Part shown: piece by piece, positions 8,029 to 28,181 of the stretch | Position numbering within the stretch: position 1 is the stretch's first letter | How the letters are laid out: each line of letters begins with the position of its first letter | Virus record (IMG/VR): IMGVR_UViG_2681813004_000022 | DNA from: a virus | Taxonomy: Duplodnaviria > Heunggongvirae > Uroviricota > Caudoviricetes | DNA length: 38,772 nucleotides | Strand: one strand, 5' to 3' | The notes under the pieces: model-generated | Seen by the model: only the letters and a program-made list of their open reading frames with translations | Database searches by the model: none | Told to the model about the DNA's origin: nothing | Program-made: the position numbers and the translations under genes

Positions 8029-8835
8029 TTATTTAGAAAGGTACTTATCTCTAAGTTGATTCAGTCTGTCAGCATCGCGTTCTGAAAACTCGGCGTCACC
8101 ATAGATCGATTTCCCATCTGCGTCTTCAAGGCCAATGACTGTGACGGTAAATATAGCATCAGCCGGAACTTTAAGTTTTCCCCAATCAGAGTATCTATTA
8201 GGGGCTAATTTCCAGTTGGCTTTCTCACCTGGTTCCAGACCTCCAGAAATTTTATAGTTGAAGACGTCAGAGAACCAAGGGACGCTTCTTCCTGGGCTGG
8301 CAATAACTCCTTTGAAGAATACTCTGGCAACCGCTTTGTCTGTTTCGTTTTCAACGCTAATATCTAGAATTGGCTGATCATTGCCGTAATCCTCTTTCTG
8401 GAAATAAAAACGGGAACGTTCGACCTTGAAGGCTTTCATTTTTTCCGCAGCCTGTGTTGCAGAGGTTTGTTTGGCTTCCAGTTCTTTTATTTCTTGCAGA
8501 GCCTGTTCTTTCTCTCTCTTCTCACGCTCAAGGCGAATAGTTTGTGCGTAATTTATAACCTCATCACCAGTTTTACCTTCCAACGCTGACTTAATTTTTG
8601 TTTCGTAGACGTCCCCAGAAGACGTTCCAGCCTGCATTAGCTCTCTCATGTTGATTTGGCTAAAGGCAACGACTTTAACTGCATCATCAAACTGAGCTTT
8701 TTTATCTGCAGGTAAGGACTCTCTTACTTTTTGAATGGACTCTTTCATCGACTGATCGCTTGATGCATCGATCTTCGGTTTGTCACAAGCAGTAAGCAGC
8801 AGAGCAAAAGCAATTACGCCAGTTAATTTCTTCAT
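8029..8835 (-). CDS. Lipoprotein (about 268 aa), function unknown
   Basis: Probable start MKKLTGVIAFALLLTAC (lipobox LTAC) at 8835 with AGGGA RBS; the longer ORF-track start at 8907 would translate a hairpin/T-run. Confidence 0.6.
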   Translation of the reverse strand: MKKLTGVIAFALLLTACDKPKIDASSDQSMKESIQKVRESLPADKKAQFDDAVKVVAFSQINMRELMQAGTSSGDVYETKIKSALEGKTGDEVINYAQTIRLEREKREKEQALQEIKELEAKQTSATQAAEKMKAFKVERSRFYFQKEDYGNDQPILDISVENETDKAVARVFFKGVIASPGRSVPWFSDVFNYKISGGLEPGEKANWKLAPNRYSDWGKLKVPADAIFTVTVIGLEDADGKSIYGDAEFSERDADRLNQLRDKYLSK

Positions 8836-8852
8836 ATCCCTATCCCAATCGT

Positions 8853-8884
8853 AAAAAAACAAGGCTAATCCTAACAGGATTAGC
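8853..8884 (-). terminator. Terminator-like hairpin plus T7 run in the leader immediately 5' of the lipoprotein gene
   Basis: On the minus strand GCTAATCC-TGTTA-GGATTAGC followed by CTTG and TTTTTTT, ending about 18 nt before the ATG. Confidence 0.3.
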
Positions 8885-9357
8885 GGGCATGACAAACTCA
8901 TAGCCATATAGGTGTGCTGTATAAATTAGCGGGATGAGAAAGCCTGCACAGACCCTCATGTTGAAACTTGATTTTAGCTCAAAAGAGCTGACACTAAATA
9001 ACTGCGCGGAATAATGCTCCACTTTCGGTTAGCCCTTGGCCCTTGCTGGGTAAGGCGTGGGGCCGTTTTCTTCGCCTGATCCTGCTGTATCTGGCCTACA
9101 GTATGTTGTCCTTACGCGACATGCCACATGTCAGTAAACGGCAGGTGTAGCAGTATTAGACGCAGCTATTTAGTGTGTATTAAGCTGGCTCATATTTATG
9201 ACTGGTTTCAAGGTTTGACCGATTTTCATGTCATGCATGTCTATGCTGCATGAGTTCGCATGATCGTTTGAGGATCGGTTTGGCTAAGACATGCCAGAAC
9301 TGGCGGGCTTTTGCTCATGTCATGCAGGTGCATGAAAACTACTACATAAAGCGGGCA

Positions 9358-9376: not shown

Positions 9377-9523
9377 CGCGCGCAAGGTATAGAAACAGTC
9401 GTTTGTTTACAAACAGATACTATGATTTTCAATGTTCTTTCAAATTGTTGCTTTAAGATAGCAGGTAGATGTTTGTAGTTGTTGCGTGAACTGATAAGCT
9501 TCAACAACTATCGAGGAAAGGAT

Positions 9524-10591
9524 ATGAAGCGGCTAACTGAAGAACAAATTGAACATTCTTTGATCAGAGCAAGGAAGATTGCGAAGCGGGAGTCAAGAAA
9601 GCTTTCTGGTGGAAGACGGATGCTACAGCCCATGCGGGTATTCTCTCGTGTGAGAATACCCGCGCCTGCGTCATTGGACTTATTTAATACTAAAAATTAC
9701 AAACTATTTATAGAGTTTATCACTTTAATCAGAGATTACATCAATGATGGTGAGAAAATTTTAATAGATTTCAGAAATACAAAATCTCTGAAAGCATGTG
9801 CAGTAATCGTATTGTATGCACATATTGACTTTTTACAAAGGCAAACAAAAGATAAAAATATAATTTCTATTACTACGTGCGGTTCATCCAGGGCAAATAA
9901 CTGGTTTAAAATATGTGGTATTTGGGGGATTACAGGGTTTCAGCGTATAGCTGCAGATAAGCTTAATTCAATGGAAATTGTTTCCGCTGTTGCAGGCAAA
10001 ACTAGAGATGATCATGAAAGTGCCGAAGCAAGACAAAAAATTAAAAATATTCTACGTTATATAAAAGATACCATTTATGAAGGTAAGATTTCCGCTTCGG
10101 ATGGTGTGAAATTATATGCAGCCTTAACTGAATCTATTAGCAATGTTGGTCTACATGCGTATTCAAATGAAGAACAGTTCTCTGAATTTATTGAGGACAT
10201 TGGTAAAAGATGGTGGATATTGGCACACAAAGTCGAAGAACAACTATTTTTGATGGTGTATGATATGGGAGAAGGTATCCCAGTTACATTGGTTAAAAAA
10301 GACTTTTTCACATTTATCGCTCAGATATTTAATCCTAAGACGGATTCTGATAAAATATTCGCGGCTGTACAGTATGGTGAGACAAGAATGAATAGTCAGA
10401 AGCATGGTAAAGGATTACCTGATATGAAAAGGTATGTTGTAGATAACCCTGAGGGGCAGTTACATATTTTTAGTGGAATGGGACGATATTCTTATGATGC
10501 TGAAAATAATGTTGAAGATAAATTTGATCTGCCATACTCCATAGGTGGAACCCTTATTCAATGGAATGTAAGTTTGAGAGGTGCTGAATGA
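9524..10591 (+). CDS. GHKL-type (histidine-kinase-like) ATPase / putative Ser kinase, cargo gene 1
   Basis: Bergerat-fold motifs in order: N-box ESISNVGLHAY, G1 YDMGEGIP, G2 HGKGLPD. About 170 aa of N-terminal extension. GAGGAAAGG RBS before ATG 9524. AT-rich. Confidence 0.65.
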   Translation: MKRLTEEQIEHSLIRARKIAKRESRKLSGGRRMLQPMRVFSRVRIPAPASLDLFNTKNYKLFIEFITLIRDYINDGEKILIDFRNTKSLKACAVIVLYAHIDFLQRQTKDKNIISITTCGSSRANNWFKICGIWGITGFQRIAADKLNSMEIVSAVAGKTRDDHESAEARQKIKNILRYIKDTIYEGKISASDGVKLYAALTESISNVGLHAYSNEEQFSEFIEDIGKRWWILAHKVEEQLFLMVYDMGEGIPVTLVKKDFFTFIAQIFNPKTDSDKIFAAVQYGETRMNSQKHGKGLPDMKRYVVDNPEGQLHIFSGMGRYSYDAENNVEDKFDLPYSIGGTLIQWNVSLRGAE

Positions 10592-10908
10592 AAATCAAAG
10601 AGATACATGTTGCTGAAGATTTTTCAGATGTTCCCTATGGCCGCTATGATGAGGATGGTCCTGATAATGGACAACGTTTCCGTGAAAAGTATCTTTTGAA
10701 AGCCATCCAAGATTATGATGAGGTGCACGTGTACCTTGATGGTGCTATGGGTTATGGTTCTTCATTCTTGGAAGAGGCGTTTGGTGGACTTTATAGAACA
10801 AATAATATAGATAAAGCTATAATTAGGAAAAAATTAAAAATATTTACTGATTTGGATTTCCTCAAGGATAGTATATGGGGATATATTTCTGATGCTAAAA
10901 AGGAGTGA
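10588..10908 (+). CDS. Small STAS-like protein (anti-sigma-antagonist-like), cargo gene 2
   Basis: 106 aa; VHVYLDGAMGYGSSFLEEAFGGL resembles the STAS core, and I recall the DUF4325 STAS-like family having a conserved SFL motif. ATGA overlap with gene 1. Confidence 0.55.
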   Translation: MKIKEIHVAEDFSDVPYGRYDEDGPDNGQRFREKYLLKAIQDYDEVHVYLDGAMGYGSSFLEEAFGGLYRTNNIDKAIIRKKLKIFTDLDFLKDSIWGYISDAKKE

Positions 10909-11402
10909 TGTTCATGGATGAACTTCCGGTTTATCTGCGGTTATTACAATACCTTGCTAGTTCAGGTGTGATTGCAATTCTAACAGCCTTGATTGGTTGG
11001 GTTTTTGTTTATAGAAACTCCCGTGCGTTGCAAAAGAGGAGTGAAACATGGGCAATTGTAAAAAATGTTTCAGATAATTTAAAGGAAATTGAATCTGCAT
11101 CAAGAAAGTTTTGGATACCGGGAGATTCAAAAGAAATTGATGCAATGTCATTTCAAAATGAGATAACAGCACTTCTTGCGGAGACCGAGCGGTGGTTGAA
11201 TCATCTAAAACAACGCATTAATATCGAAGGTGACTATAAACCTTTGATTGCTGATTTATTCAAAGATGCTACATCTAATATTGAAAAAGCACAGGAGTAT
11301 GATAAAAGTCAAAGGACAAGAATTAGTGTATTAGTGTCAAAAAGGGCGAAAATAATTAAATCTCTAATTGATGAGTCTTATCAGAAAAAATTCTTAAAGT
11401 GA
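10905..11402 (+). CDS. Single-pass membrane protein with helical C-terminal domain, cargo gene 3
   Basis: 165 aa; hydrophobic helix LRLLQYLASSGVIAILTALIGWVFV near the N-terminus, charged helical remainder; start overlaps gene 2 stop. Confidence 0.6.
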   Translation: MMFMDELPVYLRLLQYLASSGVIAILTALIGWVFVYRNSRALQKRSETWAIVKNVSDNLKEIESASRKFWIPGDSKEIDAMSFQNEITALLAETERWLNHLKQRINIEGDYKPLIADLFKDATSNIEKAQEYDKSQRTRISVLVSKRAKIIKSLIDESYQKKFLK

Positions 11403-20244: not shown

Positions 20245-21006
20245 TTATATGGCTAAGTTATTCCTACATGTGGAGATAAAGTCACAGTAAAGCTGATGAA
20301 TTGTAGAACTCCACTCATTGGCTATTTTTATATTTTCCTTTGTTTGAGGTAGTAATTCCATCACCATAGCTCGATCTCTGTCAGTAAGCATGCTAAACAT
20401 ATAGTTATTGATATTGTGCGATTTATAAGCGAGAAAATAATTAAACTTTATTATTTCACTGTAAAGATGAGTGGCTTTATCTTCAATTTCATTGTCATGA
20501 AAATGTTGATCTGCATGACCCCACCCGTATTCAAGATTACTAATATCTTTTGTATTATTATCATGATAGGAGTTTTCAAAATTATGGTCTTTTAAGAATT
20601 CAATTGATAACGAGGTTGTTGGTAGAATATCAATAAATGCCTCATAAAGTTTAACGTCTGCTACTCTTTTTCTTTCCTGTATTTCTTTTTGGTTATTCTC
20701 TTTTAGAATTTCTTGGTATATATGGGGGACTTTTATTAATAGGTGAAAGACTAGCCCGGATAGAATTAAAGTTAAAGCAACCCCACTACTTGGTGTAATG
20801 CTATCAATCTTAAGAAGGCTTATTTCTGAATTAGTTGTTTTGTTGTAAAAATCAATTATAAGGTTTACGAATAATAAATATGTGGGTGCAGGTAGTGCAA
20901 GAATACCGATCCCTGCAGTGAGTAAAGTCCATGTTACCTTATTGCTAAATTCAGGAAATGCCTTTCTTATTAATTTTTTTATAAGAAGATTTAAATTGTC
21001 TTTCAT
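20245..21006 (-). CDS. AT-rich membrane protein of unknown function (moron between S and V)
   Basis: 253 aa, two N-terminal hydrophobic helices; opposite strand to the late genes; codon usage visibly AT-rich unlike the flanking phage genes. Confidence 0.6.
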   Translation of the reverse strand: MKDNLNLLIKKLIRKAFPEFSNKVTWTLLTAGIGILALPAPTYLLFVNLIIDFYNKTTNSEISLLKIDSITPSSGVALTLILSGLVFHLLIKVPHIYQEILKENNQKEIQERKRVADVKLYEAFIDILPTTSLSIEFLKDHNFENSYHDNNTKDISNLEYGWGHADQHFHDNEIEDKATHLYSEIIKFNYFLAYKSHNINNYMFSMLTDRDRAMVMELLPQTKENIKIANEWSSTIHQLYCDFISTCRNNLAI

Positions 21007-22928: not shown

Positions 22929-23526
22929 TCTGCTGCCACCGGGTTCAACACCACTGGAGCGCCGACTGGCGCAAACCTGCAGCGGGATTTCTGATCTGCA
23001 GGTGCCGCTTCGTGACTTGTGGAATCCGGCAACCTGTCCGGTCAGTTTCCTGCCTTATCTCGCCTGGGCGTTCTCTGTGGATCGCTGGGACGAGGGCTGG
23101 ACAGAAAGCGTCAAGCGCCAGGTGGTGAAGGATGCTTTTTATATTCATCAGCATAAAGGGACCACCAGTGCCGTGCGGCGGGTGGTGGAGCCGTTCGGCT
23201 TTCTGATCCGCATTATTGAGTGGTGGCAGACCGGAGAGGCAGCGGGCACGTTTCGCCTAGATATCGGCGTGCAGGACCAGGGCATCACTGAAGATACCTA
23301 TCTGGAACTTGAGCGACTGATAAGCGATGCCAAACCATGTAGCCGCCACATGATCGGCATGTCCATCAATCTGCAGACCAGCGGCCCGCATTGGGTGGGA
23401 GCCGCCAGCTATCTTGGCGAAGAAATCACGATCTATCCGTATATCAACGAAACGATTATTTCCGGTGGCACCGCGCATGAAGGCGGGGCGGTCCATGTTA
23501 TTGACACAATGAGAGTGAATCCATGA
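22921..23526 (+). CDS. I: Baseplate protein I
   Basis: 201 aa, synteny. Confidence 0.8.
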
Positions 23527-24923
23527 GCACAAAATTTTATACCCTGCTGACGGATATTGGCGCGGCGAAACTTGCCAGCGCCGCCGCGCTCGGTGTGCCG
23601 CTAAAAATTACCCATATGGCGGTGGGCGATGGCGGCGGAGTATTGCCAACGCCGGACGCAAAGCAGACGGCACTGGTAAATGAGAAACGCCGGGCTGCGC
23701 TGAATATGCTTTATATCGACCCGCAGAACAGCAGCCAGATTATTGCTGAACAGGTGATCCCTGAAAACGAGGGCGGTTGGTGGATACGTGAAGTGGGCCT
23801 GTTTGATGAGTCCGGGGCATTGATTGCCGTGGGCAACTGCCCGGAAAGCTATAAGCCGCAACTGGCTGAAGGCAGCGGGCGCACCCAGACCGTGCGCATG
23901 GTGCTGATTACCAGCAGTACGGACAATATCGCCCTGAAAATCGACCCTGCTGTAGTGCTGGCAACCCGTAAATACGTGGATGATAAAGTCCTGGAATTAA
24001 AGCTGTATGTGGATGACCAGATGAGAAACCACATTGCCGCACAAGATCCTCATACCCAGTATGCGCAGAAACATAATCCGACATTTACCGGAGAACCAAA
24101 AGCGCCGACGCCTGCAGCAGGAAATAACACCACTCGGATTGCGACCACAGAGTTTGTTCAGGCCGCTATTACTGCTCTGATTAACGGTGCGCCAGCCACG
24201 CTGGACACACTGAAAGAAATTGCCGCAGCCATTAACAATGACCCGAAATTCAGTACCACTATTAATAATGCGCTGGCACTGAAAGCGCCGCTGTCGAGTC
24301 CGGCACTCACCGGAACGCCAACAGCACCTACTGCGGCACAGTCGGTCAACAATACACAGATTGCCACCACGGCATTTGTGAAATCGGCGATTGCGGCAAT
24401 GGTGGGTTCTGCACCTGCGGCACTGGATACACTGAACGAACTGGCGGCGGCACTGGGGAATGATCCGAACTTTGCCACGACAATGCTTAATGCGCTGGCA
24501 GGTAAACAACCGCTGGACAATACGCTGACTCATTTGAGTGGAAAGGATGTAGCAGGTCTTCTCGCATACCTTGGTTTGGGAGAAGCGGCTAAAAGGAATG
24601 TAGGGACAGGGGCGAATCAGATACCTGATATGGGTAGCTTCACGCTTTCTGTTTCAGGTACTGGATATCAAAAATTACCATCAGGTTTTATTCTTCAGTG
24701 GGGCTCAATCGGCGCACCAGGCATTGCACAGGATGTAGTAACCCATTTCCCGATTGCATTTCCAAACAGATGTCTGCGTGTTTTGGTCTCACAAGACTAC
24801 ACACCAGATAGCGGGGCTGTTGGTTATATTGCCTGTGCAGGTTTTAGTCCCGATCCGGTTAAATTTATATCCAGAGCCAGTACTCCTGGCCTCGGCGCTT
24901 CATTTTTAGCGTTAGGCTGTTAA
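23523..24923 (+). CDS. H: Tail fibre protein H (constant N-terminal part plus currently expressed variable C-terminus)
   Basis: 466 aa; repeated xTxAxxAxxAxxTTxFVxxAI-type segments; contains an invertase crossover site at 24559-24584. Confidence 0.85.
24559..24584. repeat. 26-bp hix/gix-like invertase crossover site (left)
   Basis: TTCTCGCATACC-TT-GGTTTGGGAGAA, an imperfect palindrome (half-sites 10/12 matching); 15-bp core TTGGTTTGGGAGAAG repeated inverted at 27533-27547. Confidence 0.5.
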
Positions 24924-24944
24924 TTTAGCTATATGGAGTGAAAA

Positions 24945-25385
24945 ATGAATTACATATATTCCGCGACTACAAACTCTTTCTATCCGCTGGAGATGAAAGA
25001 GGATTACACTCAAGCTGACTCATGGCCAGATGATGCTGTTGAAGTTGATGAGCAAGTGTATATTGAGTTTTCCGGATTACCGCCGAAAGGAAAAATCCGT
25101 ATCGCTGGAGAAAATGGTTTTCCTGCATGGTCTGAAATTCCACCACCAACACATGAGGAACAGATTGCTGCAGCCGAACTGGAAAAGCAGCAACTGATTA
25201 ATCAGGCCAACGATTATATGAACAGTAAACAATGGCCTGGTAAAGCGGCTATTGGTCGTCTGAAAGGTGAGGAACTGGCGCAATATAATTTGTGGCTGGA
25301 TTATCTGGACGCACTGGAACTGGTCGATACTTCTGGTGCGCCAGATATTGAATGGCCTACGCCTCCGGCAGTTCAGGCCAGATGA
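24945..25385 (+). CDS. G: Tail fibre assembly chaperone (P2 gpG / Mu U-like)
   Basis: 146 aa with conserved C-terminal motif YNLWLDYLDALELVDTSGAPDIEWP. Confidence 0.8.
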   Translation: MNYIYSATTNSFYPLEMKEDYTQADSWPDDAVEVDEQVYIEFSGLPPKGKIRIAGENGFPAWSEIPPPTHEEQIAAAELEKQQLINQANDYMNSKQWPGKAAIGRLKGEELAQYNLWLDYLDALELVDTSGAPDIEWPTPPAVQAR

Positions 25386-25959
25386 CATCCGGCGCGGTGC
25401 TGGTATCAGTTGCCGTCACCGCGTCAATGTAATCCAGCGCAGCGTTAAGTCGGGCGGTTTCTGCCTGCGTCAGATTCCGTCCGGCCTGCAATTTCAGCTG
25501 AATCAGACTAATGGAAGCCATTGCAGTATCAATCAGTGACTGACGCTGTGCTTCTGCCGCGCCTACTGCGGCGCTATGCTGTGCCTCAGTATCTGTTACC
25601 CATTTCTCACCATCCCATTCATCGTATGGCGTTAACGGGGCGATAGTGGTTGTATTTTCAGGATAATCACCCGGAGCTGTGATTTCTTTCGATTCTCTCG
25701 TTTCGGTGTTATAGACGATTTCACCGCGATGGTCTGGTACATATTCCCATGAGTTAAAATCTGCAGAGCGGCAGATTGCATAACCAGCTTTGTAGGTGCC
25801 TGGAGCATCTAAACAGGAATATGCCGGAATGCCGACACCAACAGCAAGATATTCAGTTGAAGCTGAAATATACTCCCGACTCATGACGTCAAAGTTATAA
25901 ACAGTAATTTCTCCTGCCATAGTGGCAATTAATTCACTGTTTAATTCTGCGTTATTCAT
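25357..25959 (-). CDS. Alternate tail fibre assembly chaperone (U'-like)
   Basis: 200 aa, C-terminal LDYIDAVTATDTSTAPDVIWPELP motif; convergent with and overlapping G by about 29 bp. Confidence 0.75.
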   Translation of the reverse strand: MNNAELNSELIATMAGEITVYNFDVMSREYISASTEYLAVGVGIPAYSCLDAPGTYKAGYAICRSADFNSWEYVPDHRGEIVYNTETRESKEITAPGDYPENTTTIAPLTPYDEWDGEKWVTDTEAQHSAAVGAAEAQRQSLIDTAMASISLIQLKLQAGRNLTQAETARLNAALDYIDAVTATDTSTAPDVIWPELPEA

Positions 25960-26233
25960 TATGCAGCCCTCACAATATAGTTAAAAGCGACATTTCGTGG
26001 GCGTGTTTCATTCGCACCTGCAGGTTTAGTCGTTGCCGCAACAACACCACCCTCTGTAATAGCCGGGTTGGGAATTGGGTAATTATCGAAGTCAATGGCC
26101 GGAGACAGGGGCGTGATTTGTTTTAAAATCGTGGTGCCTGAAAAACTTCCCAGAGTCTGGTCGTTAGTTCGTGAAGTCCAGATTCCCCAATAGTGGTTAT
26201 GACTGACAATCGCACCGTCCTGAAGCGTTAATA

Positions 26234-26241
26234 ATCCCCTT
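26234..26241. repeat. 8-bp target-site duplication ATCCCCTT (left copy)
   Basis: Identical 8-mer directly abuts the outer IS26 inverted repeats at 26234-26241 and 27329-27336. Confidence 0.7.
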
Positions 26242-27061
26242 GGCACTGTTGCAAAGTTAGCGATGAGGCAGCCTTTTGTCTTATTCAAAGGCCTTACATT
26301 TCAAAAACTCTGCTTACCAGGCGCATTTCGCCCAGGGGATCACCATAATAAAATGCTGAGGCCTGGCCTTTGCGTAGTGCACGCATCACCTCAATACCTT
26401 TGATGGTGGCGTAAGCCGTCTTCATGGATTTAAATCCCAGCGTGGCGCCGATTATCCGTTTCAGTTTGCCATGATCGCATTCAATCACGTTGTTCCGGTA
26501 CTTAATCTGTCGGTGTTCAACGTCAGACGGGCACCGGCCTTCGCGTTTGAGCAGAGCAAGCGCGCGACCATAGGCGGGCGCTTTATCCGTGTTGATGAAT
26601 CGCGGGATCTGCCACTTCTTCACGTTGTTGAGGATTTTACCCAGAAACCGGTATGCAGCTTTGCTGTTACGACGGGAGGAGAGATAAAAATCGACAGTGC
26701 GGCCCCGGCTGTCGACGGCCCGGTACAGATACGCCCAGCGGCCATTGACCTTCACGTAGGTTTCATCCATGTGCCACGGGCAAAGATCGGAAGGGTTACG
26801 CCAGTACCAGCGCAGCCGTTTTTCCATTTCAGGCGCATAACGCTGAACCCAGCGGTAAATCGTGGAGTGATCGACATTCACTCCGCGTTCAGCCAGCATC
26901 TCCTGCAGCTCACGGTAACTGATGCCGTATTTGCAGTACCAGCGTACGGCCCACAGAATGATGTCACGCTGAAAATGCCGGCCTTTGAATGGGTTCATGT
27001 GCAGCTCCATCAGCAAAAGGGGATGATAAGTTTATCACCACCGACTATTTGCAACAGTGCC
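26242..27061 (-). mobile_element. IS26 (IS6 family), complete 820-bp copy
   Basis: 14-bp terminal inverted repeats GGCACTGTTGCAAA at 26242-26255 and (reverse complement) 27048-27061; 820 bp; encodes the 234-aa Tnp26 sequence I recognise. Confidence 0.9.
26294..26998 (-). CDS. tnpA: IS26 transposase Tnp26
   Basis: 234 aa starting MNPFKGRHFQRDIILWAVRWYCKYGISYRELQEM..., DDE transposase of IS26. Confidence 0.9.
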   Translation of the reverse strand: MNPFKGRHFQRDIILWAVRWYCKYGISYRELQEMLAERGVNVDHSTIYRWVQRYAPEMEKRLRWYWRNPSDLCPWHMDETYVKVNGRWAYLYRAVDSRGRTVDFYLSSRRNSKAAYRFLGKILNNVKKWQIPRFINTDKAPAYGRALALLKREGRCPSDVEHRQIKYRNNVIECDHGKLKRIIGATLGFKSMKTAYATIKGIEVMRALRKGQASAFYYGDPLGEMRLVSRVFEM

Positions 27062-27328
27062 GTTACGCCAGTACCAGCGCAGCCGTTTTTCCATTTCAGG
27101 CGCATAACGCTGAACCCAGCGGTAAATCGTGGAGTGATCGACATTCACTCCGCGTTCAGCCAGCATCTCCTGCAGCTCACGGTAACTGATGCCGTATTTG
27201 CAGTACCAGCGTACGGCCCACAGAATGATGTCACGCTGAAAATGCCGGCCTTTGAATGGGTTCATGTGCAGCTCCATCAGCAAAAGGGGATGATAAGTTT
27301 ATCACCACCGACTATTTGCAACAGTGCC
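27062..27328 (-). mobile_element. Partial IS26 copy (267 bp, tnp-proximal end with terminal IR), tandem to the complete copy
   Basis: Sequence equals 26795-27061 of the complete copy and ends in the same terminal IR at 27315-27328; encodes only the first about 67 aa of Tnp26. Confidence 0.8.
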
Positions 27329-27336
27329 ATCCCCTT
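27329..27336. repeat. 8-bp target-site duplication ATCCCCTT (right copy)
   Basis: Matches 26234-26241. Confidence 0.7.
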
Positions 27337-27533
27337 CCGTTATCCACTCCACGTCCGTCATCCCAGCCACGAATAAACTCACCACGTAAATCAGGCAATT
27401 TATTTGTCGGATAAGCCTTTGCCAGTTCCGGGTATTCTTCAGCAGAAAAAGCGGCACCGTTGCATTTCAGCCAGCCTGTTGGCGGAGTGGCTGAAGGCCA
27501 CGGAACAGGCACCCCAACCGGTAATGCAGAGCC

Positions 27534-27559
27534 TTCTCCCAAACCAACGTTTAAGAAAA
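27534..27559. repeat. hix/gix-like invertase crossover site (right, inverted)
   Basis: TTCTCCCAAACC-AA-CGTTTAAGAAAA; shares the inverted 15-bp core with the left site; 55 bp upstream of the invertase gene. Confidence 0.5.
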
Positions 27560-27614: not shown

Positions 27615-28181
27615 ATGCTTATTGGCTATGTACGCGTGTCAACAAATGACCAGAACACCGATTTGCAACGTAATGCACTGAACTGCGCGGGATGTGAGCG
27701 GATTTTTGAGGACAAAATCAGTGGCACTAAGTCCGAAAGACCGGGGCTGAAAAAACTGCTCAGGACACTATCGGCAGGAGACACTCTGGTTGTCTGGAAG
27801 CTGGACAGGTTAGGGCGCAGTATGCGGCATCTTGTTACGCTGATAGAAGAGTTGCGCCAGCGTGGTGTGAATTTCAGAAGCCTGACTGACAGTATTGATA
27901 CCAGTACCCCAATGGGCCGTTTCTTTTTTCATGTCATGGGTGCCCTGGCTGAAATGGAACGCGAACTGATAGTTGAACGTACCAGGGCAGGGCTGGCTGC
28001 AGCTCGTGCCAAAGGCAGAGTAGGTGGACGCCGTCCTAAGTTGACCACCGAACAGTGGGCACAGATTGGGCGTTTACTCGAGGCCGGAGAATCAAGACAG
28101 CGTATTGCACTGATTTTTGATGTAGGCGTTTCTACCATTTATAGAAAATTTCCGGCAAATAAGATCAATGAATCCCCCTGA
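27615..28181 (+). CDS. Serine DNA invertase (Pin/Gin/Hin/Cin family)
   Basis: N-terminus MLIGYVRVSTNDQNTDLQRNAL... with catalytic Ser in the VRVST context, and C-terminal HTH; closely resembles e14 Pin as I recall it. Confidence 0.9.
   Translation: MLIGYVRVSTNDQNTDLQRNALNCAGCERIFEDKISGTKSERPGLKKLLRTLSAGDTLVVWKLDRLGRSMRHLVTLIEELRQRGVNFRSLTDSIDTSTPMGRFFFHVMGALAEMERELIVERTRAGLAAARAKGRVGGRRPKLTTEQWAQIGRLLEAGESRQRIALIFDVGVSTIYRKFPANKINESP

Follow-up and report, generated by a model that had tools for sequence, protein, structure and literature searches.

Does the tail-fibre region of the prophage in the IMG/VR record IMGVR_UViG_2681813004_000022 hold a host-range switch, and can such a switch still offer two working fibres? 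The window, meaning the whole stretch of 38,772 nucleotides that was analysed, is a piece of the E. coli chromosome with a complete P2-like prophage. An initial annotation of the window had proposed an invertible tail-fibre segment, running from inside gene H to position 27559, with hix/gix-like sites and an adjacent Pin-family invertase. We consider it highly probable that the locus is a Pin/Gin/Cin-type invertible tail-fibre segment of this P2-like prophage, one state of which has been broken by the insertion sequence IS26.

Recombination sites

We detected two 26-bp sites in inverted orientation. The left site (pix/gix-like, 24559-24584, inside H) reads TTCTCGCATACC TT GGTTTGGGAGAA, with half-sites that agree at 10 of 12 positions and thus form an imperfect palindrome, and the right site (27534-27559) reads TTCTCCCAAACC AA CGTTTAAGAAAA. 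The central dinucleotides match in inverted orientation, since AA at the right site is TT on the other strand. The two sites share an exact inverted core of 15 nt (24571-24585 and 27533-27547), and the palindrome in H and its partner with the inverted 15-bp core lie exactly where the initial annotation had placed them. Ten further inverted pairs of 13-20 nt occur in the same 4.3 kb, so the length of the repeat is unconvincing by itself.

The sites were therefore evaluated against known invertase substrates. A degenerate site pattern gave two matches against none expected; this pattern was partly drawn from the sites of the window itself, and it was replaced for that reason by a position matrix built from Mu and P1 only. 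The matrix contains just eight half-sites (Mu gixL and gixR, P1 cixL and cixR, taken from annotated phage records) and was used for a dyad scan of the whole window. The left and right sites ranked first and second (25.6 and 24.0 bits), the next best position scored 12.1 bits and the maximum of 30 shuffles was 18.5 bits; no third site was found by this matrix in the 38.8-kb window. A search with a single half-site, allowing two mismatches, gave 5 matches against 2.85 expected, which is not significant alone. A single base separates the right site from its counterpart in the e14 element, TTCTCCCAAACCAACGTTTATGAAAA, and the alignability to known invertase substrates that had been put forward as a check is borne out by both comparisons. 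The outer half of the right site lies outside any fibre gene. We also collected 80 related loci from IMG/VR, with invertases 86-99% identical, and in nearly all of those where the upstream DNA is present the right site lies 80-81 nt upstream of the invertase start.

Inversion in related prophages

E. coli HH194M and SCU-204 (loci L001 and L003) carry the prophage of the window with identical sites and the same invertase protein accession (100% identical). Their segments, measured between the central dinucleotides, are 1,878 bp long and agree at 1877 of 1878 positions as reverse complements, compared with 482 of 1878 in direct alignment, while the 1.5-kb flanks are identical at 1499/1500 and 1500/1500 positions. 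The breakpoint of this inversion is the two sites. A related prophage in ATCC 8739, whose invertase is 97.9% identical to that of the window, provides a second case: two independent assemblies (NC_010468 and CP033020) are set apart by an exact inversion, with 1853/1853 positions matching as reverse complement and 3000/3000 in each flank. In ATCC 8739 the inner half-site is polymorphic at its outer end, and this polymorphism switches sides with the flip, which places the exchange within positions 13-25 of the 26-bp site, the central dinucleotide included.

Both orientations also occur in wider collections. Among complete genomes at 99% identity or more, the present junction was found in three and the flipped junction in four; among complete E. 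coli genomes with at least 80% coverage of an 800-nt junction probe, the numbers were 28 and 45, respectively. In the IMG/VR relatives, the cassette with the Collar domain is the expressed one at 14 loci and the silent one at 17. Across the 80 loci the segment measures 1.1-2.0 kb, with one four-site exception, and the cassettes are highly diverse. Coexisting orientations were demonstrated experimentally in e14 and in E. coli P2-like prophages (PMC4272514). The initial annotation had named a single orientation, seen together with an inactive invertase, as the finding that would speak against a switch; both orientations are seen in prophages with identical invertase and sites.

Six of the IMG/VR loci (L025, L033, L037, L042, L047, L058) are unusual in having three or four sites, doubled invertase starts, or a left site that is the reverse complement of the right site. 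They are either multi-site, shufflon-like versions of the locus or assemblies of populations with mixed orientation. In E. coli 13TMH22 (NZ_CP019256.1/NZ_CP019257.1) the chromosomal junction of a related prophage is flipped, and the related invertible region of a separate 36-kb record has the orientation of the window; this record may be an excised circular phage genome.

Layout of the segment and the IS26 insertion

The segment is 2,973 bp long in the window. The constant N-terminal part of H extends on the plus strand from 23523 to the central TT at 24572 (Pfam Phage_tail_fib at residues 1-150, E=3.6e-64), and the constant stretch is the one found identical at 1499 of 1500 positions between the two genomes of opposite orientation, HH194M and SCU-204. 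It continues into the expressed variable C-terminus at 24573-24923 (+), which is gp53-like (Pfam Gp53-like_C at residues 384-466, E=1.2e-13). H (23523-24923) is thus a continuous open reading frame (ORF) of 466 aa across the left site in the present orientation, in agreement with the H-G orientation that had been described as the expressed one. The expressed tail-fibre assembly (chaperone) gene follows at 24945-25385 (+, 146 aa, Pfam Caudo_TAP E=8.4e-38), and its counterpart in HH194M is annotated as tail fiber assembly protein.

The second cassette is stored on the minus strand. It consists of a silent TfaE-like tail-fibre assembly gene at 25357-25959 (200 aa, Pfam Caudo_TAP E=7.7e-32), identical to TfaE of e14 at 173 of 200 positions, and a silent fibre C-terminus in two pieces. 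The distal fragment (25959-26241) is severed from its start by IS26, and the proximal fragment (27329-27545) has the Pfam Collar domain (E=3.3e-16); the first 8 bp of the latter are the right copy of the target duplication. The two assembly genes are convergent, as had been noted from the ORFs, and we measured their overlap as 29 bp. The layout with two alternative fibre C-termini in the manner of Mu G and P1 C is therefore present as proposed, but the silent C-terminus is split by IS26, and a working two-fibre switch is not what this copy encodes.

The insertion escaped the initial annotation. It is a unit of 1,087 bp (26242-27328) that splits the silent Collar C-terminus and makes up 37% of the 2,973-bp segment. 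The unit starts with an IS26 of 820 bp (26242-27061), whose transposase is encoded on the minus strand and whose 14-bp terminal inverted repeats, GGCACTGTTGCAAA, lie at 26242-26255 and 27048-27061; the transposase matches Pfam DDE_Tnp_IS240 (E=2.5e-48) and, with 275.5 bits where the cutoff is 125, NCBIfam transpos_IS6. IS26 is followed by a tandem copy of 267 bp from its transposase-5' end (27062-27328, minus strand), which is a 100% direct repeat of 26795-27061. An 8-bp target-site duplication, ATCCCCTT, read from the sequence, is present on the left at 26234-26241 and on the right at 27329-27336. Removing 26242-27336 in silico restored a continuous ORF of 177 aa that matches HH194M exactly across the join. 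We regard the disruption of the silent C-terminus by IS26 as essentially certain. The insertion lies more than 200 bp away from either site and is not in the invertase gene.

The unit shares with canonical IS26 the length of 820 bp, the 14-bp terminal inverted repeats, the Tnp26 transposase and the 8-bp target duplication, and differs from it by the extra exact tandem copy of 267 bp. The same 1,087-bp unit was detected (1086/1087) in the K. pneumoniae plasmid pKp_Goe_629-1 (NZ_CP018365.1; L090:948-2034), beside catB3/blaOXA-1 in an unrelated context. The plasmid copy and the intact target duplication suggest that the unit is real and moved whole, which argues against a one-off assembly error; it probably transposes as one through its outer inverted repeat. 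A literature search on IS26 with a 267-bp end gave no account of a 1,087-bp variant, and the internal IS26/IS26 junction had no match in the genome contigs collection and one plasmid match otherwise.

The IS26 lesion is private to this isolate in the collections searched. Exact junction patterns of the insertion had no match in the genome, metagenome or viral contig collections, a 3,951-nt query that includes IS26 was not covered to 80% or more by any complete E. coli genome, and exact-protein look-ups of both split ORFs returned none on record. IS26 was observed in two related regions: FORC_081 carries it within the invertase gene, at the 5' end (L002, 4872-5709), and 40EC carries it in a silent gp53-like C-terminus of an e14-like element (L009, 4822-6045). 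We considered and rejected these two as instances of the same insertion, as they are different IS26 insertions in related regions. Their occurrence suggests repeated erosion of such switches by IS26 in IS26-rich strains.

DNA invertase and candidate enhancer

A serine DNA invertase of the Pin family is encoded just outside the segment, as the initial annotation had it, at 27615-28181 (+, 188 aa), with its start 55 bp beyond the right site. The protein matches Pfam Resolvase (E=2.6e-53) and HTH_7, and its PDB match is Gin (3uj3, E=4.3e-92); NCBIfam had no model at cutoff for the invertase or for the fibre proteins. It is identical to PinE at 84%, to Cin at 77%, to Gin at 71% and to the HH194M invertase at 100% of positions. 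The ATG at 27615 aligns with the starts of Gin, Cin and PinE, and the annotation of the relatives uses it as well; the catalytic residue is Ser9 in the motif YVRVSTNDQ. The invertase keeps K46, K47 and R50 as well as Q150, R153 and L154, which correspond to K47/R48/K51 and Q151/R154/L155 of Hin; these Hin residues are reported to be uniquely conserved in the invertases that depend on Fis and an enhancer (PMC3798978). Every testable defining feature of this class, the enhancer aside, is present, with inversion itself seen in the relatives.

A recombinational enhancer, bound by Fis, is predicted by homology in the 5' end of the invertase gene. No gap is needed to align this part of the gene with gin, cin and pinE, and positions 27633-27704 correspond to the enhancer annotated in P1 cin (+19 to +90 of cin), with an identity of 56/72 compared with 305/450 in the rest of the gene. 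Two candidate Fis 15-mers (G-N13-C) lie in this stretch, GTGTCAACAAATGAC at 27636-27650 (gene +22) and GCGCGGGATGTGAGC at 27685-27699 (gene +71). Among 72 distinct invertase genes, compared pairwise with kinship ignored, the fraction of synonymous differences is 0.175 in codons 7-30 and 0.262 elsewhere. By analogy with its class, the invertase would depend on Fis and on this enhancer.

Proposed mechanism and effect of inversion

The steps proposed here follow what is known of Hin and Gin (PMC3798978). Invertase dimers would bind the two inverted 26-bp sites, which would then synapse at the enhancer in the invertase 5' end with host Fis bound to it. All four strands would be cut at the central dinucleotide (TT/AA), one pair of subunits would rotate by 180 degrees and the strands would be religated, so that the intervening DNA is flipped. 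With the left site inside H, the flip would exchange the C-terminal, receptor-binding part of H together with the chaperone gene for the pair stored backwards at the far end.

When the segment is inverted in silico at the central dinucleotides, H stays in frame in either state. The 15-nt core encodes a shared G-L-G-E peptide and both fibre C-termini start with LGLGE; the flipped join reads LGLGE-GSALPVG in frame, and in the IS26-free ancestor it reads AYLGLGE-GSALPVGVPVPWP and gives an H of 513 aa, which is the product annotated in SCU-204. With IS26 in place, the flipped H has 427 aa (ending in GRGWHCCK and a stop codon) and is about 90 C-terminal residues short, and IS26 stands between H and its chaperone gene. 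Two intact C-termini, each with its chaperone, are present in the IS26-free relatives and not in the window, where an intact fibre (466 aa) with chaperone is encoded in the present orientation alone. The truncated fibre would be non-functional. The element is thus a crippled host-range switch, one state of which is defective.

We tentatively propose, as a possibility that falls somewhat short of even chances, that IS26 turned a switch between two host ranges into an on/off switch for virion infectivity and, separately, that the 1,087-bp unit is a mobile IS26 variant, transposing whole. If the on/off reading is true, the particles released on induction by cells in the flipped state would have truncated fibres.

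As judged from the sequence, the switch has probably kept its ability to flip: all of its cis and trans parts are undamaged and match those of active relatives exactly, and continued flipping in this isolate is therefore likely.

Alternative explanations

Several points weigh against a switch that is active in this strain. The genome is on record in one orientation, and no second instance of this IS26 insertion was found in the collections searched to reveal the opposite one. The segment is 2,973 bp long compared with 1.1-2.0 kb in the relatives, a length that related invertases tolerate, as the Mu G segment (~3.06 kb) and the P1 C segment (4,256 bp) show. A consensus promoter and terminator scan around the invertase gene gave no invertase promoter and one weak minus-strand match, not above shuffles. 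The enhancer is proposed from alignment and a modest synonymous drop, which could also be explained by translation constraint at the 5' end. The single orientation on record for this genome and the lack of a promoter-like site upstream of the invertase in the consensus scan would fit a frozen relic, in which the architecture of a switch is present and the orientation is fixed in this strain, the invertase being unexpressed or affected by IS26 or the host background. Decay of such switches does occur, and IS26 is found in similar E. coli prophage regions, including the FORC_081 invertase gene. We nevertheless regard a frozen relic as unlikely, since neither the two sites nor the invertase ORF nor the enhancer-equivalent stretch is damaged or differs from its equivalent in prophages that occur in both orientations, and IS26 lies more than 200 bp from the sites and outside the invertase gene.

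The identical 15-nt core encodes a peptide shared by the two fibres, and it might be asked whether the repeats are mere shared coding sequence, with differences in orientation produced by RecA-dependent recombination or assembly error; the odd site arrangements of L025, L042, L047 and L058 do resemble assemblies of mixed populations. This explanation is hardly credible, as the outer half-sites also fit the gix/cix dyad consensus, the right outer one outside the fibre genes, the right site keeps its distance of 80-81 nt from the invertase start in nearly all locatable related loci, and the breakpoints of independent complete genomes fall exactly in the sites. The minimal homology of RecA is a further argument, 15 nt being below the length of efficient homologous recombination. 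For the family, a flip that mainly serves the host is conceivable as well: the chimeric fibre could alter the cell surface or block phages rather than set the host range of the prophage. There is a precedent in e14, where inversion of the P segment driven by PinQ creates StfE2, which blocks adsorption of T2 (PMC12529663), and the silent cassette, once restored, resembles StfE of e14 (109 identical positions in a 186-column alignment) and, with 173/200, TfaE. We consider this very improbable as the main role here, because the prophage looks complete, which places the fibre in its normal virion role, and because it is the StfE-like cassette that IS26 has destroyed. The invertible host-range segment with one broken state remains our preferred explanation.

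Relationship to known invertible segments

The closest known system appears to be the P segment of e14 with PinE, followed by the P2-like invertible fibre loci, Mu G/Gin and P1 C/Cin. The e14 system has an invertase 84% identical, a right site one base off, identical inner half-sites and TfaE with 173/200 identical positions, and its layout is alike, with the constant part of the fibre, a C-terminus with tfa, tfaE and stfE stored backwards, and the invertase. Unlike the complete P2-like prophage described here, e14 is a defective lambdoid remnant with a different tail/baseplate module; the expressed cassette here is of the gp53-like type and the StfE-like cassette is interrupted by IS26.

The P2-like loci of enteropathogenic E. 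coli (EPEC) E2348/69 likewise have an invertase beside the tail-fibre gene, and Goldberg et al. 2014 (PMC4272514) showed by sequencing and PCR (polymerase chain reaction) that the orientations coexist there. One of the EPEC loci combines four variants with three inverted repeats, in contrast to two sites here; this likeness is drawn from the published description of the loci.

Mu G shares with the segment an invertase of 71% identity, and no PDB structure matches better than Gin; also common to both are dyad sites of 26 bp, the left of them in the fibre gene (S in Mu), two pairs of C-terminus and chaperone, and an invertase just past the right site. It differs in the gix centre (TC/GA rather than TT/AA), in distantly related cassettes (about 26% identity) and in a segment of ~3.06 kb that is intact. 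In P1 C/Cin, the invertase is 77% identical, the cix centre is TT/AA (cixL includes AAACCTTGGTTTAAGAGAA) and the enhancer in the cin 5' end aligns without gaps, whereas cin lies on the other side relative to S and the C segment (4,256 bp) has longer inverted repeats. Hin/hix is alike in its invertase subfamily and its 26-bp sites, its Fis enhancer inside the invertase gene has a candidate counterpart here, and the residues for Fis contact are kept; in contrast, Hin flips a promoter with its own gene inside the segment, while the segment described here exchanges coding sequence and leaves the invertase outside.

Tail-fibre switches of the Pin/Gin/Cin type are textbook material, the type of switch found here is already known, and the locus has little importance beyond correct annotation. 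An assembly captures one orientation out of a mixed population, and the annotated H product is consequently one of two possible; automated annotation leaves the sites and the invertible segment unflagged. IS26 is a marker of multi-resistance plasmids. The knock-out of the alternative fibre is a small example of the spread of IS26 into prophages and of their erosion by it, and the 1,087-bp variant may interest those who track IS26.

Prophage context and cargo genes

The right flank of the prophage (ybjL, ybjM, grxA, ybjC) is 99.9% identical to many E. coli genomes. The window contains genes for an integrase, a CI-type repressor and the gpA replication protein, and the tail proteins I and H, the sheath and the remaining P2 gene order were found in it. 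The structural genes are about 96% identical to those in P2-like Klebsiella and E. coli phage records. Integrase, repressor, replication, head, lysis and tail genes are all represented, and the prophage looks complete.

We detected a low-GC (guanine plus cytosine) cassette (0.33-0.37) at 9479-11402, between the replication region and the portal gene, with three ORFs on the same strand: 370 aa with a weak HATPase_c match, 106 aa with DUF4325 (STAS-like) and 165 aa, matchless. PADLOC gave zero matches for the low-GC cargo genes, and a literature search on DUF4325 returned nothing useful. P2-like phages have a known hotspot for cargo and defence genes at this position, and the cassette is therefore a candidate for an uncharacterised defence system. 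An adjoining ORF of 292 aa with a DUF6694 domain (8029-8907, minus strand, about 0.42 GC) looks like a further cargo gene.

Another ORF, of 253 aa, lies at 20245-21006 on the minus strand, opposite to its neighbours, with a GC content of 0.31, between the tail-completion genes and the baseplate gene V; it had no match in Pfam or PADLOC. The related prophage of ATCC 8739 has a P-loop ATPase of the Sll1717 family at the equivalent position, suggesting that this is a variable cargo slot.

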